Of a stretch of DNA of 64,000 bases, positions 14,487-58,528 are shown piece after piece. The stretch comes from Alphaproteobacteria bacterium. Lineage in GTDB: Bacteria > Pseudomonadota > Alphaproteobacteria > MPNO01. A program made the position numbers and the translations under genes. Every line of letters starts with the position of its first letter. The stretch's first letter is position 1. The stretch covers positions 2,627,942 through 2,691,941 of the forward strand of contig CBDDOM010000002.1 in assembly GCA_965231875.1 (NCBI GenBank), given 5' to 3'. The notes under the pieces were generated by a model. That model did not search any database. It saw only the letters and a program-made list of their open reading frames with translations, and was not told the origin of the DNA.

Positions 14487-14589
14487 CCCGTCATGGTCGG
14501 CGCAGGCCGACCATCCAAGAGTTTTTTTCTGTATCAACGGGAACACAAAAAAGCAAAACGTGGATGGTCGGCCTGCGCCGACCGTGACG
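14487..14589. repeat. Family-A REP/BIME-like palindromic element, copy 1
   Basis: Left arm cccgtcATGGTCGGCgcagGCCGACCATccaag and right arm cgtggATGGTCGGCctgcGCCGACCgtgacg are inverted. Each arm is itself a 9-bp-stem hairpin. They flank a conserved spacer with A/T runs. It lies in the ptrB-ispG divergent intergenic region. Confidence 0.8.
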
Positions 14590-28099: not shown

Positions 28100-28409
28100 G
28101 GCCTTCTCCCCTATGGCGGCAGTTTCCGGTGCGAGACTAGCCCATTTTCGCGCCGGGTCGAACCGGGGCGGCGCAACCGTCATTTCGACCGGAGCGCAGC
28201 GAGCGGAGAAATCTTCCCGCCGCGACGCTGCATCGGGCGTGACAGATATCTCCGCTCCGCCTCCCTCCGGTCGGCTCCGGTCGATATGACGACGGGGAGA
28301 TCGGATCGGTGCGACAAGAGGAGGTTGGGGGTTTGACTAGGCCCGCTTGTTGACACTCCCGACAGGTCGCCCCTAGGGTTTCCGCGCGTATTGGCACGGG
28401 GGAAGCACG

Positions 28410-49488: not shown

Positions 49489-49586
49489 CCCGTCATGGTG
49501 GGCGGAGGCCCACCATCCACGAGTTTTTCTGTGCGGACGGCACAACAAAATAAGACGTGGATGGTCCGCCTGCGCCGACCATGACG
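49489..49586. repeat. Family-A REP/BIME-like palindromic element, copy 2
   Basis: Same architecture and spacer as copy 1. The left hairpin reads ATGGTGGGCggagGCCCACCAT. That is a compensatory double change (C->G in one stem strand, G->C in the other) relative to ATGGTCGGC...GCCGACCAT. Confidence 0.8.
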
Positions 49587-49606: not shown

Positions 49607-50545
49607 TCAAAACGCCCGGTGGATCAGCTCCTCCCCGGCGAGGAAGCGTTTCAGGTTTTCCAGCCAGATCTCGCCCACGCGCACGGTGTAGAGCGGCGTC
49701 ATGCAGGCGGCGTGGGGGGAAATGAACAGGTTGGGGATGTCCCAGAGGTCGCTGTCGGCGGGCAGGGGCTCGGTGGGCAGCACGTCGACGAAGGCCTGGG
49801 CGATGCCGCCGGTGGCGAGCGCGCCCTGGAGCGCCTCGATATCGACCAGCGCGCCGCGCCCGACATTGACCAGCGTCGCGGTGGGCTTCATCCGGGCGAG
49901 CGCCTCGGCCCCGATCATGCCGGCGGTCTCGCCGGTGTTGGGGACGGCGAGGACCACGAAATCCGCCTCCGGCAGGAACGCGGCAAGGTCGTCGAGCGTC
50001 CCCTGCCGGTCGAGCCCGGGCACCGGATCGGGCGACCGGCGGATGCCGTGCACCGTCATCCCGAACGCGCCCGCATAGGCCGCGACGCGGCTGCCGATGG
50101 CGCCGAGCCCGACGACGAGGACGGTGGACGCGCTCAGCCCGGCCTGCTTGAGCTGGTGCCACTCATGCGCGCGTTGCAGGTCGCGGAACTCAGCCAGCCG
50201 CTTCGCCCCCCACATCACGCCGGCGAAGGCGAACTCCGCGACCTCGGGCGCGTTGGCGCCGGGGCTGTGGGTGACCGCCACCCCCTTGGCCCGCATGTCG
50301 TCATAGAACCGCCCGTCGATCCCCGCATCCTCGGTATGCGCCCATCTGGGCGGGGAGATGGAGATCGCGGTGTCGACGAAGGCGTCGGTGTAGGCGTCGC
50401 CGGCGTAGATCACGACATCGGAGCCCTCGGGCGAGACGGTCCAGTTGCTCCCGCGGTCTGTCAATGCCCATTCGATGCCGGGGCAGAACGCCTCGGCTTG
50501 CGCCGCCACCTCGTCGTGGAAATCGTGCGCCGCCGCGATTTTCAT
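49607..50545 (-). CDS. D-isomer-specific 2-hydroxyacid dehydrogenase family protein
   Basis: NAD-binding VGLGAIGSRVA motif. Catalytic-domain layout. Start at MKIAAAHDF. Confidence 0.75.
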   Translation of the reverse strand: MKIAAAHDFHDEVAAQAEAFCPGIEWALTDRGSNWTVSPEGSDVVIYAGDAYTDAFVDTAISISPPRWAHTEDAGIDGRFYDDMRAKGVAVTHSPGANAPEVAEFAFAGVMWGAKRLAEFRDLQRAHEWHQLKQAGLSASTVLVVGLGAIGSRVAAYAGAFGMTVHGIRRSPDPVPGLDRQGTLDDLAAFLPEADFVVLAVPNTGETAGMIGAEALARMKPTATLVNVGRGALVDIEALQGALATGGIAQAFVDVLPTEPLPADSDLWDIPNLFISPHAACMTPLYTVRVGEIWLENLKRFLAGEELIHRAF

Positions 50546-50684
50546 GGTGATGACTCCGTCTTCCCCGACCGCAAACCGCGCGGACCGTTTGTTGGGCCCG
50601 TATTGTACCGACGACGGACGCCGGTTGCGCGGCCGGGGCACGGCCCTATACTGTGACTACATTGGTTACAAACGGGGATCGCCG

Positions 50685-50927
50685 ATGCGACAGGTCCAGC
50701 TGCGCGAGGCCAAGGCGAGGCTGTCCGCCCTGGTCGACGGGGCGGCGGAGGGGGAGGCGACGATCGTCACGCGCCACGGCAAGCCGCGGGCCGTGATCGT
50801 CGGGATCGACGAATGGAACCGCCTCAGCAACGTCCCGTCCTTCGGCCGCCTGCTGCTCGCTTCGGAACTGGAGGACGGGGACCTGCCCCCGCGCGACACC
50901 GCCCCGCCGCGCGAGGCCGGGCTATAG
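50685..50927 (+). CDS. Type II antitoxin, Phd/YefM family
   Basis: 80 aa. MRQVQLREAKARLSALVDGAAEGEATIVTRHGKPRAVIVGIDEW is the canonical Phd/YefM N-domain. Confidence 0.7.
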   Translation: MRQVQLREAKARLSALVDGAAEGEATIVTRHGKPRAVIVGIDEWNRLSNVPSFGRLLLASELEDGDLPPRDTAPPREAGL

Positions 50928-50967
50928 AACGCATCCGTTTCAGGCGGAACCGCGTCCGCTGTTTCTG

Positions 50968-51079
50968 CCCGTCATGGTCGGCGTAGGCCGACCATCCACG
51001 TTTTCTCTTTTGTTGTTCTCCATCTGCATACCGGGCGAGAAAAAAACTCGTGGATGGTCGGCCTACGCCGACCATGACG
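50968..51079. repeat. Family-A REP/BIME-like palindromic element, copy 3 (inverted orientation, longer spacer)
   Basis: Hairpins read ATGGTCGGCgtagGCCGACCAT. The spacer is the reverse complement of the copy-1/2 spacer, with an 18-bp insertion. It sits between the Phd antitoxin gene and the VapC toxin gene. Confidence 0.8.
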
Positions 51080-51138
51080 GTGGGGGTGCGCCAGCCCGAC
51101 CGGTTCCGACCGAACCGGACACGCTCTAGGACCGCGTC

Positions 51139-51576
51139 GTGTACCTGGCCGACACCGATGTTCTGTCGACCGATGCGCCCGGCCGGCGGGAACGCTCCGC
51201 GGCCCTGGTCGACTGGATGGACGCGCGGTCGGACGCCTTGTTCCTGTCCACGATCACCGTCGCCGAAATCCGGCACGGCATCGCCAAGCTGGAACGGACC
51301 GGCGCCGCAGACAGGGCGGCGCGCCTCGGCGACTGGCTCGAACTCGTGCTCCATCTCTATGGCGACCGGGTAATCCCGTTCGACATAGAAGCCGCCAACG
51401 CCGCGGGGCCGCTGATGGACAAGGCGCGCGCGACGGGCCAGTCGCCCGGCTTCGCCGACCTCGCCATCGCCGCGACGGCAGACAGCCGGAACCTGACGGT
51501 GCTAACGCGCAACCTGCGTCACTTTGAGCCGCTGGATATCCAAGCGGTAAATCCGTTCGAAGCGTCGCCGGACTAA
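51139..51576 (+). CDS. Type II toxin, VapC (PIN-domain ribonuclease)
   Basis: YLADTDVLS...STITVAEIRHGIA...DLAIAATADSRNLTVLTRNLRHF is a PIN/VapC signature with intact acidic residues. Apparent GTG start with no obvious RBS. A stop codon lies 3 codons upstream in frame. Confidence 0.7.
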   Translation: MYLADTDVLSTDAPGRRERSAALVDWMDARSDALFLSTITVAEIRHGIAKLERTGAADRAARLGDWLELVLHLYGDRVIPFDIEAANAAGPLMDKARATGQSPGFADLAIAATADSRNLTVLTRNLRHFEPLDIQAVNPFEASPD

Positions 51577-51686
51577 GCGTGGTCCCGAGAAAGGGCCTCC
51601 TCCTCACATCCTCTCCGCGTTTAATGACCCCGTTGCTGAACCAAGGCCGCCAAAGCCGTATCTGGGCATTACATTCCACTTTATCC

Positions 51687-51716
51687 TTGACATTAGTCGT
51701 TCTCTGCAGCATAAGT
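51687..51716 (+). promoter_or_regulatory. Putative sigma70-like promoter of the AT-rich island gene
   Basis: TTGACA, 18 bp, ATAAGT, about 78 nt upstream of the ATG. A strong AAAGGAGAG RBS sits before the start. Confidence 0.4.
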
Positions 51717-51793
51717 TGTCGTCTGCCTCGTGGATTCGAGGACAGATGGTCGGCAATCAAGCTGCTGGATGGCGGCATTGAAAGGAGAGATAG

Positions 51794-52990
51794 ATGCTTC
51801 GTAAGTTCAGTTTCGCGCCGGAATTTGCTCGGCGCATACCCGATCCCAACTTCAAGTCCCAGTCTAACGCCGAACGACACCTATTTGTGATGGGTGTCAA
51901 ATCGATTCCTGCTGGCATCGGCCTAGATCCGAACGCGCGTCGGCCCAACATCTCGAAGCGCGTTTATCGAAAAGTTGAGGCCAGTTTGCTACAGCAGGAC
52001 GAGAGTCCCAGAGGGACTTTTCATCTGAAGAACAAAGGCATCACGATAATCGCTTCGTCGGTCAAGCAGTCGGGAGACCGAAAATACGAAATTGCTTTGG
52101 AGTCTGGTGTCCATGGTATCGTTGACGGTGGACACACTTATGAACTCATCATAAACAATCAAGAAAATCCAGAGCTGGCGGACGACCAATATGTGAACGT
52201 TGAAGTCCGCGTTGGAATTCCAGATCAGTGGATTCCTGAAATTGCGGGCGGCCTCAATACTTCAGTGCAGGTTCACGACATGAGTTTGGACCATCTCGCT
52301 GGACGCTTTGAGTGGCTGAAGGATTTGCTCAAGAAAGAAGAGTATTACGACACGATCGCTTGGTCGGAGAACGACAAAGGTGAATATGACGCCCGCGATA
52401 TCATAAGCATGATGCTGTGTTTCAACGTTGCTCTTTTCCCCAATGTTAAAGAGGATCACCCGATCGCCGCCTACGAAAAGAAGTCGACAGCCTTGAAGTT
52501 GTTTGAAGATAACGATGGTAGCTTCAAGCGCATGAGGCCGATACTCAAGGACATTTTGCGTTTCCATGATATCGTCGGAAAACAGGGCCGTGAGCTGTAT
52601 AATAAGTTGCCGAATACAAAAGGTGGAACTCTGGCGTTTGTCGATCAGCGCAAGCGGGGAAAGTATCGATTTCAATTCATCGGTGACGAAGACGATTATC
52701 GCCTTGCTCCCGGTGCGCTGTACCCGATGATGGCTGCATTCCGCTGGTACATTGAAGAAGACCCAATGTCGGGAAACATGAAATGGCGTGGCGGGTTCGC
52801 GAGCGTGCTAACGGCTTGGAATGAACTCGGAGGCGAACTAATGCGCGCCACGATGCAAACCAGTAACGAGTTGGGCCGAAATCCTCAATCTATCGGTAAG
52901 AGCCGCAATCACTGGTCGAACCTGCATTCTCGAGTCATTAAACATGACCTGATGAGCCAGAAGCGCCCAAACGCCGGCGCTGCTGAGTAA
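51794..52990 (+). CDS. Hypothetical protein in low-GC island; AIPR-like (abortive-infection phage-resistance) candidate
   Basis: 398-aa ORF in a segment with clearly lower GC and different codon usage than its surroundings. It has its own promoter and strong RBS. N-terminal KNKGITIIA and HGIVDGGHTYELII resemble the 'NNGITI ... IVNGxQT' core I associate with the AIPR family. That is an unverified recollection. Confidence 0.45.
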   Translation: MLRKFSFAPEFARRIPDPNFKSQSNAERHLFVMGVKSIPAGIGLDPNARRPNISKRVYRKVEASLLQQDESPRGTFHLKNKGITIIASSVKQSGDRKYEIALESGVHGIVDGGHTYELIINNQENPELADDQYVNVEVRVGIPDQWIPEIAGGLNTSVQVHDMSLDHLAGRFEWLKDLLKKEEYYDTIAWSENDKGEYDARDIISMMLCFNVALFPNVKEDHPIAAYEKKSTALKLFEDNDGSFKRMRPILKDILRFHDIVGKQGRELYNKLPNTKGGTLAFVDQRKRGKYRFQFIGDEDDYRLAPGALYPMMAAFRWYIEEDPMSGNMKWRGGFASVLTAWNELGGELMRATMQTSNELGRNPQSIGKSRNHWSNLHSRVIKHDLMSQKRPNAGAAE

Positions 52991-53042
52991 GAGGAAACCA
53001 CCGACTCGGGGGGCGACCGCCGACAAAGCGCGCTCCCGCCCC

Positions 53043-58370: not shown

Positions 58371-58453
58371 CGCCACGTCGGCACGGTTCCATCCAACACG
58401 GATAGACCCCTGAGCGCCCCCGGAGATCCGAAAATAGTCCCGTTTCGGGACAA

Positions 58454-58469
58454 TGTTTCACGTGAAACA
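58454..58469. other. parS site 1 (perfect match to canonical ParB-binding centromere sequence)
   Basis: TGTTTCACGTGAAACA is a perfect 16-bp palindrome, identical to the canonical parS consensus TGTTNCACGTGAAACA. Confidence 0.75.
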
Positions 58470-58490
58470 ATGGTCAACAATGCTGACCTA

Positions 58491-58506
58491 TGTTTCACGT
58501 GAAACA
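58491..58506. other. parS site 2 (perfect match), 21 bp from site 1
   Basis: A second exact TGTTTCACGTGAAACA. The 21-bp gap between the sites holds the small palindrome GGTCA-acaatgc-TGACC. Confidence 0.75.
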
Positions 58507-58528
58507 TTAGGCGCGGTTCCCGGCGGCG

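Follow-up and report, generated by a model that had tools for sequence, protein, structure and literature searches.

A palindromic repeat inserted at the antitoxin stop codon of an alphaproteobacterial phd-vapC operon, and its predicted effect on toxin expression

Type II toxin-antitoxin (TA) modules rely on the antitoxin being more abundant than the toxin, and the tight spacing of the two genes is thought to be part of this control. The excess of antitoxin as a general rule and the translational coupling of the genes have been reviewed (PMC7167474), and in hicAB an internal intrinsic terminator sets the ratio of toxin to antitoxin (PMC11878559). Palindromic repeats between genes are also well described. 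The definitions of repetitive extragenic palindromic (REP) sequences, bacterial interspersed mosaic elements (BIMEs) and REP doublets forming hairpins (REPINs) are found in Bertels and Rainey (2011, PMC3116915) and Ton-Hoang et al. (2012, PMC3333891), and intercistronic REPs are presented as classic modulators of the relative expression of genes in an operon (Higgins 1982; Stern 1988; both cited in PMC3184786). Bacterial miniature inverted-repeat transposable elements (MITEs) within operons are exemplified by Chunjie in Geobacter (Chen et al. 2008, cited in PMC3184786) and by Correia and ERIC elements. Here we analyzed a phd-vapC pair in 64,000 nucleotides (nt) of DNA from an alphaproteobacterium (contig CBDDOM010000002.1, positions 2,627,942 to 2,691,941; this whole stretch is the window, and all coordinates below count from its first letter). 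The two genes are co-oriented and 211 nt apart (spacer 50928-51138), and all but the last 9 nt of the spacer is inserted DNA, with a palindromic repeat that we call family-A at its center. The initial annotation of the window had placed the phd stop at 50927 and the vapC GTG at 51139, with a family-A palindrome in the 211-nt gap, and this layout was confirmed.

The gene pair and the sequence directly upstream of it comprise the following features.

50652 to 50670, unstranded: quasi-palindrome TGTGACTACATTGGTTACA upstream of phd, 15 nt before its start codon
50685 to 50927, plus strand: phd/yefM-family antitoxin gene, 80 amino acids (aa), ATG at 50685, TAG stop at 50925-50927
51139 to 51576, plus strand: vapC, PIN toxin gene, 145 aa, GTG start, PF01850

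In profile searches, Phd matched PF02604 (E 4e-16, 58.8 bits against a cutoff of 29.8) and TIGR01552 (44.8 bits, cutoff 20.8), and VapC matched the PIN family PF01850 (E 3e-12, 47.8 bits, cutoff 23.6). The C terminus of Phd is collinear with its orthologs as far as the stop codon, and the whole protein is 100% identical at the amino acid level to that of L001, one of the related loci described below. The nearest solved structure to VapC is FitB of Neisseria (2H1C, E 6e-14). The gene has no frameshift and no premature stop, and D5, E43 and D107, which align with catalytic residues of FitB, are all retained. The toxin is thus intact, as the initial annotation had it, but not with all of its acidic residues: three of the four are present, and at the fourth PIN position (FitB D122), where PIN domains are least conserved, the window and all orthologs that were examined have Asn125. 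Homologs of this VapC are mostly 145 aa long, and in the one-genome-per-species scan described below most starts are GTG or TTG. With an antitoxin fold, a PIN toxin and adjacent, co-oriented genes inherited together, the locus has, as far as sequence can tell, what defines a type II Phd/YefM-VapC module, and the conservation of the adjacency across several phyla supports phd and vapC being a cognate pair. The quasi-palindrome upstream of phd is kept in the close orthologs L001-L004 and L006 and is probably an autoregulatory operator of Phd/VapC within the promoter. Elsewhere, in a metagenomic homolog of 155 aa (P0081), residues 1-14 of Phd are fused to a VapC that begins near residue 23, with the catalytic D5 gone; this allele of the TA pair, from another community, has decayed.

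The central question is whether the long spacer is original to this operon. One genome per species was scanned, yielding 47 loci that encode relatives of the window VapC, of which 45 have a gene for a Phd homolog immediately before vapC. When metagenome contigs reached through close VapC homologs were added, the spacer could be measured at 48 phd-vapC loci; it is 0-11 nt long in 44 of these, most commonly 9 nt, and the short-spacer loci span Alphaproteobacteria, Acidobacteriota, Binatia and Gammaproteobacteria. Many of the 48 loci are syntenic with the window. The five closest relatives (L048, L087, L088, L089 and L090, with VapC at least ~90% identical) have spacers of 9-10 nt, in which TAG or TAA is followed by GACCGCTTC, GGACCGGGTT or GGACCGAGTT and then by GTG; the junction is TAG/TAA-GACCGCTTC in L048 and L087 and TAG-GGACGCGTC in L003. 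The loci nearest to the window share with it both the 2-hydroxyacid dehydrogenase gene upstream and the genes downstream, and for this reason we regard them as true orthologs. Judged against these orthologs, the long spacer is the derived state. The ancestral operon had, on this comparison, a spacer of ~9 nt, consisting of the stop codon, GACCGCKTC and then GTG or TTG.

These comparisons bear out the proposal in the initial annotation that a repeat had entered a once-compact operon, and they also changed the grounds for it. A spacer of about 200 nt without the repeat in relatives would have spoken against that proposal, and the five closest loci have 9-10 nt instead. However, the GTG start, the weak ribosome-binding site and the nearby in-frame stop, which had been taken as signs of the insertion, either go back to the ancestral operon or follow from the duplication of TAG, so that the conclusion was right and the reasoning flawed. 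The GTG is indeed the start codon, but a ribosome-binding site is not altogether missing: a weak Shine-Dalgarno (SD)-like UAGGA lies 7 nt ahead of it, with an anti-SD duplex energy of -3.9 kcal/mol, the same as at the uninterrupted L048. The vapC SD is weak across the family (duplex energies mostly -1.4 to -5.6 kcal/mol) and is partly built from the phd stop codon (UAGGGA or UAGGA). Since uninterrupted relatives also start with GTG and likewise seem to lack a ribosome-binding site, these are family traits and not damage.

Alignment to L003, L048 and L087 set the junctions of the insert, which has the following parts.

50928 to 51129, plus strand: inserted block of 202 nt, with a TAG direct repeat on either side (50925-50927 and 51127-51129); not present in 44 of the 48 loci
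51127 to 51138, plus strand: ancestral junction, consisting of TAG (the former phd stop, now part of the SD-like UAGGA) and the 9-nt spacer GACCGCGTC
50928 to 50973, plus strand: left 46-nt unit, a small hairpin (CCGTTTC...GGAACCG) followed by the pyrimidine-rich left flank of family-A
51093 to 51138, plus strand: right 46-nt unit, with another small hairpin (CCGGTTC-CGACC-GAACCGG), the duplicated TAG and the 9 nt of the ancestral spacer

The window reads CTATAG, then the 202 nt, which themselves end in TAG, then GACCGCGTC and GTG, and its right junction TAG-GACCGCGTC-GTG is the ancestral junction. The alignment thereby shows an insertion lying exactly at the phd stop codon, with TAG now on both sides. 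The in-frame TAG that had been noticed three codons ahead of the vapC GTG is there (51127-51129), and on this comparison it is the duplicated phd stop, with the last 9 nt before the GTG being the ancestral spacer. Because TAG was duplicated, the insertion disrupted neither of the two reading frames and spared the start codon of vapC as well as its weak SD. The gap had been described as almost entirely occupied by family-A copy 3, but the core of ~110 nt fills only about half of it; the rest, bar the last 9 nt, was also inserted, as a left flank (50928-50969) and a right flank of 50 nt (51080-51129) that together make up 92 bases. Positions ~50960-50969 carry on the pyrimidine-rich flank of family-A, so the truly unique part of the left flank is somewhat shorter than 42 nt.

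The flanks of the insert are both inverted and direct repeats of one another. As inverted repeats, 50925-50952 pairs with 51101-51128 (79% complementary), and the block with its left TAG (50925-51129) is predicted to fold into one closed stem-loop of -123 kcal/mol. For the whole spacer the predicted fold is -137 kcal/mol (z = -9.4); in a larger context the base of the helix is 50925-50928 paired with 51125-51128, exactly at the boundaries of the insert, and GGACC at 51129-51133 is predicted to be unpaired (p ~0.9). As direct repeats, the left and right 46-nt units are imperfect copies (27 of 46 positions identical by hand count) with a period of 165 nt, and each holds a small hairpin of the type CCGKTTC-loop-GAACCGG. 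All of the best ungapped matches between the flanks fall at the 165-nt period, and the best score was reached in 9 of 2,000 shuffles.

Several other identities for the insert were considered. No evidence was found that the outer arms form a dispersed element of their own: they occur once in the window and in none of 60 related loci, and a metagenome scan for CGCNTCCGTTTCANGCGGAA gave 34 hits, all in unrelated contexts and at about the number expected by chance. No Rfam 15 covariance model matched 50400-51800 at E <= 1, and PLSDB gave no match, so that a plasmid-borne element is not supported. An integron attC site was dropped, the core sites of attC being RYYYAAC/GTTRRRY, which the ends CGTCAT...ATGACG do not fit. 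No sigma-70-like site was found in 50300-51900, so no new vapC promoter is seen within the insert. A small open reading frame at 50974-51129 (51 aa, with the duplicated TAG as its stop) was rejected as a MIRU-like coupling relay and attributed to chance, because its ATG lies deep in a hairpin stem without an SD and equivalents are not conserved in other copies of the repeat.

Family-A itself is present three times in the window, always intergenic and between co-oriented genes.

50970 to 51079, unstranded: family-A core, copy 3, two inverted 31-nt units (CGTCATGGTCGGC-GTAG-GCCGACCAT-CCACG) around a 48-nt loop that is first T-rich and then A-rich
50970 to 51014, plus strand: sense terminator-like module of copy 3, a 12-bp interrupted hairpin at 50970-51000 (-17.9 kcal/mol) followed by UUUUCUCUUUUGUU
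51049 to 51079, minus strand: mirror-image terminator-like module of copy 3
14489 to 14589, unstranded: family-A copy 1, intergenic, upstream of gcpE/ispG
49491 to 49586, unstranded: family-A copy 2, between the stop of a 2-hydroxyacid dehydrogenase gene and the start of a SCO1/SenC gene (both on the minus strand)

Copy 2 lies 20 nt and copy 3 43 nt after a stop codon. Six instances of the 28-nt arm motif, arranged as three doublets, are present in the window, compared to none in 100 shuffles. The arms have the general form CGTCATGGTCGGC-GNAG-GCCGACCAT-CCACG, and both arms are identical in copy 3, where the longer arms of 41 nt (50969-51009 and 51040-51080) are 90% complementary. The doublets fold at -62 to -79 kcal/mol, with copy 3 at -79 kcal/mol (z = -14). 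Single arms are also predicted hairpins (-13.6 to -18.5 kcal/mol for 10 arms from the window, L004 and L052), and in all 10 there are 6-8 T within the 10 nt after the hairpin despite differing loop sequences, so the doublet looks like two convergent terminator-like modules. We report family-A as a previously undescribed repeat family with the appearance of a double terminator.

Copy 2 adds some information on how such elements change. Its left arm carries a compensatory change (GGTGGGC...GCCCACC) that keeps the small hairpin and yet mismatches the other arm. Orthologous copies are present in L004 (1360-1455) and L052 (99-195), while the same site in L087 and L088 (~1045-1080) has a single 30-nt palindrome left by a 67-nt internal deletion; as judged from this alignment, the site illustrates the decay of a doublet to a singlet. 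As to mobility, copy 3 is flanked by direct repeats of TAG (3 bp) and GAACCG (6 bp), and no consistent target-site duplication was found at copies 1 and 2. No parent insertion sequence with matching ends was seen in the window, although no search was aimed at one. A REP-associated tyrosine transposase (RAYT) gave no tblastn match better than E = 2.4 in the window, a weak test with an E. coli sequence as query and ~1% of the ~5.3-Mb genome as target. Two further palindromic sites were noted in the window. One of ~114 nt at 28178-28291 has the same CGTCAT...ATGACG termini as family-A and a different interior, and may represent a sister family with the same ends. The other, at 58452-58508, consists of two adjacent perfect palindromes, TGTTTCACGTGAAACA, arranged as a 28-nt inverted repeat, and has an operator-like look.

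Four spacer alleles can be told apart among the orthologous operons. State A is the ~9-nt spacer (in L087, for example) and state C is the 211-nt spacer of the window. State D, found in L001 (a Defluviicoccus metagenome-assembled genome), L091, L092 and L093, is a spacer of 46 nt that corresponds to the left 46 nt of the window spacer; in L001, 42 of the 46 positions are identical (91%), which is similar to the identity of the L001 flanks. This spacer ends in TGTTTCTGCCCGTC directly before the GTG, and since that end is the pyrimidine-rich left flank common to other family-A copies, state D must descend from a state that bore family-A. It has neither the SD nor the ancestral 9 nt, yet vapC has been kept. 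We read state D as the result of a deletion of 50974-51138 at CGTC repeats (50970-50973 and 51135-51138). State B, in L049 and L050, is also 46 nt long but consists of the left 25 nt and the right 21 nt of the window spacer, joined at GAACCG (50947-50952 and 51112-51117). States B and D each equal the window spacer minus exactly 165 nt, in like register.

We take both 46-nt states to be deletions that the palindrome stimulated between the imperfect repeats on its two sides, and the alleles suggest that the palindrome is prone to deletion. For state B we lean towards this order of events. The reverse order, in which a family-A unit of ~159 nt was inserted, with duplication of GAACCG, into a 37-nt palindrome that was already there, is a serious competitor and somewhat the less probable of the two. 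For L001, a breakpoint of recombination separating phd from vapC was also considered and is not supported, because the gap in nucleotide identity between the two genes (95% against 85%) fits a synonymous divergence (dS) that is about twice as high in vapC as in phd in all pairs.

The toxin gene shows no sign of having been released from selection. The ratio of nonsynonymous to synonymous divergence (dN/dS) of vapC is 0.14-0.23 in pairs that include the window (0.18 against L001 and 0.16 against L049) and 0.13-0.37 in uninterrupted pairs. Relaxed selection was rejected, as the pairwise ratios are no different from those at uninterrupted loci, and by this measure vapC is still under purifying selection.

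The reading that we favor, at a probability of roughly 55%, is that of a selfish palindromic insertion with a side effect, namely that the expression of vapC is attenuated and uncoupled from that of phd. The insert would be a selfish or accidental passenger and not a designed regulator, but it would still be expected to alter expression. Transcripts from the phd promoter would first reach the GC-rich hairpin and the U-tract that directly follows it (50970-51014), where partial termination or attenuation would be expected, leaving the phd mRNA with a stable and protective 3' hairpin, as is classic for intercistronic REPs (Higgins 1982; Stern 1988; cited in PMC3184786). Ribosomes leaving phd would now find themselves 211 structured nt away from the vapC start, and the tight translational coupling that is implied for the ancestral operon by its non-ATG starts and spacers of 8-11 nt would be loosened. 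Both effects would lower VapC relative to Phd. We propose that the insertion has been tolerated because less toxin relative to antitoxin is the harmless direction for a TA pair. As vapC is under purifying selection, some read-through expression presumably persists. An attenuator or an uncoupling of the genes had already been suggested in the initial annotation, and the hairpin with its U-tract is consistent with that idea.

Several observations weigh against this interpretation. No terminator was called in 50300-51900 by a scan with a strict consensus, and the sense hairpin contains an internal loop, with its U-tract broken by C and G. The continuing purifying selection on vapC speaks against strong silencing, and the conservation of vapC after the insertion can be inferred only if the insertion is shared by descent. 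The flanks of the window are closest to those of the insert-free L087, L088 and L051 (91-97% identity), whereas the flanks of the remnant-bearing D and B lineages are more distant (87-92%). With the nearest relatives lacking the insert and more distant lineages carrying remnants of it, the allele history must involve recombination or repeated loss. Finally, the 92 bases outside family-A have no second copy in the window, the related loci or the metagenome scan.

Some of these same observations would be expected if the insert were a neutral passenger, with the palindrome being transcribed through, vapC being translated from its own weak SD and the TA balance being essentially unchanged. The negative terminator scan fits this explanation, as do dN/dS ratios of vapC equal to those at uninterrupted loci and the preservation of UAGGA with its 7-nt spacing, predicted to be unpaired. 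REP and BIME elements are moreover often poor terminators. We nevertheless regard neutrality as unlikely, though it is the alternative to which we give most weight: all 10 arms have a hairpin with a U-tract, a spacer that folds at -137 kcal/mol is unlikely to be neutral for expression, and dozens of orthologs have non-ATG starts and 8-11-nt spacers, which suggests that coupling is normally needed for vapC.

At the other extreme, the toxin could have been switched off altogether, with phd now serving alone, be it as an antitoxin or as a regulator, and vapC intact only because the event is recent and decay is still to come. The absence of the insert from the nearest relatives agrees with recency, the identity of its two arms would suit a copy 3 of young age, and the P0081 fusion demonstrates that alleles of this TA pair do decay elsewhere. 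Against this, remnants of the insert are common to diverged lineages (91% identity over the left 46 nt in L001), the remnant-bearing lineages keep vapC intact with dN/dS of ~0.17-0.18, and the window gene itself has lost neither its frame nor any of D5, E43 and D107. We therefore consider complete silencing improbable.

The predicted fold allows for yet another possibility, in which the hairpin preserves coupling by bringing the phd stop and the SD and start of vapC together at the base of the helix, so that terminating ribosomes melt the base and reinitiate. The helix base does coincide with the boundaries of the insert (50925-50928 with 51125-51128), GGACC at 51129-51133 is left single-stranded, the TAG duplication regenerates the ancestral stop/SD motif, and vapC remains under purifying selection. 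However, the prediction is purely thermodynamic, it is not established that bacterial ribosomes can be transferred over a 200-nt hairpin, and state D (L001 and L091-L093) lost the SD and the 9 nt while vapC was kept, so the exact geometry cannot be needed. We hold this mechanism to be very improbable at this locus. The more general idea that palindromic repeats may colonize the tightest intercistronic junctions by being coupling-neutral, here as a closed stem-loop of 204 nt, strikes us as only slightly less doubtful. If it were true, translation of the toxin would still depend on that of the antitoxin, and the alleles of 9, 46, 46 and 211 nt would be a ready test set for the effects of spacing and structure on the TA ratio. 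That the long spacer is ancestral and was lost in the relatives, or that the genes are not a pair, can practically be dismissed, given spacers of at most 11 nt in 44 of 48 loci of several phyla and an insert core that belongs to a dispersed repeat with copies at unrelated sites.

The surroundings of the pair are variable as well. One feature lies directly downstream of vapC.

51794 to 52990, plus strand: AIPR (abortive-infection) gene (PF10592, E 2e-22), in a low-GC island that is not part of the insertion

The island (~51605-53038) has a GC content of 0.50, compared to ~0.70 around it, is absent in L002, L004, L006 and L088, and has imperfect direct repeats at its edges. Across the loci, the slot 3' of vapC is a variable hotspot for defense genes: L001 and L051 have AIPR there, as does the window, whereas L049/L050 and L093 have NmeDI_C, L091/L092 an OLD-like TOPRIM/AAA_15 gene, L089 an AAA_35 ATPase and L052 a pair of genes, one of them for a DUF5677 protein. 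The AIPR proteins of the window and L051 are 98% identical while the flanks reach only 92-93%, which suggests a recent exchange of the cassette. The intergenic site of family-A copy 2 holds RelB and YafQ/ParE genes in L051 (1-507) and a solitary Phd-like gene encoding 107-108 aa in L052 (258-581) and L091/L092 (153-479). With these small TA genes at the copy 2 site in relatives, both sides of the dehydrogenase gene collect TA and defense cargo.

What is new here is an insertion at an antitoxin stop codon resolved to the single base, and a natural series of four spacer alleles (9 nt; 46 nt; 46 nt; and 211 nt with a hairpin and U-tract) of one orthologous operon, with both genes intact in all of them. 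The insertion of a REP-like element and its partial deletion are thus documented at single-base resolution, and the series offers a clean natural means of testing how an intercistronic palindrome affects coupling, termination and the stability of the mRNA. That REPs and MITEs insert within operons was already known, as were terminators inside TA operons, and nothing in our analysis overturns that picture.

How closely the locus matches these known systems can be judged feature by feature. Compared to FitAB and other VapBC systems, the window pair has a PIN toxin that is nearest to FitB, an antitoxin gene upstream of it, a conserved palindrome in the promoter region and a very short ancestral spacing; it differs in having a Phd/YefM-type antitoxin instead of the ribbon-helix-helix FitA type, in the Asn at the fourth acidic position and in the 211 nt between its genes. 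As in hicAB (PMC11878559), a GC-rich hairpin with a U-tract lies between type II TA genes in a position to favor the upstream gene. The hicAB terminator, however, is native, has been shown experimentally and favors the toxin, whose gene comes first, whereas the module in the window came on a mobile repeat, would favor the antitoxin and has a predicted role as a terminator.

Among repeats, the resemblance to bacterial MITEs lies in a small, non-coding insert with inverted-repeat symmetry that would form a long stem-loop in the RNA, is placed between co-transcribed genes without breaking their reading frames and is flanked by a TAG direct repeat; L049 and the window are also a candidate empty/filled pair at GAACCG. 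Unlike in MITEs, copies 1 and 2 of family-A lack a consistent target-site duplication, and the direct repeats at copy 3 are equally explicable as crossover points of deletions. The resemblance to REPs and REPINs is in the build of the element, with two inverted short units, each palindromic, and a spacer between them forming a hairpin of ~100-110 nt, in its strictly intergenic location and several copies (three in the 64-kb window), in the occurrence of a doublet and a decayed singlet at an orthologous locus of relatives, and in the compensatory change that keeps the small hairpin within the left arm of copy 2. Family-A differs from them in having a sequence unrelated to described REPs and no RAYT transposase found in the window (the weak test above). 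It also differs in the T-run on every arm, which gives it the look of an intrinsic terminator, and in that copy 3 sits in 92 extra inserted bases with short direct repeats flanking, which REPINs have not been reported to make.

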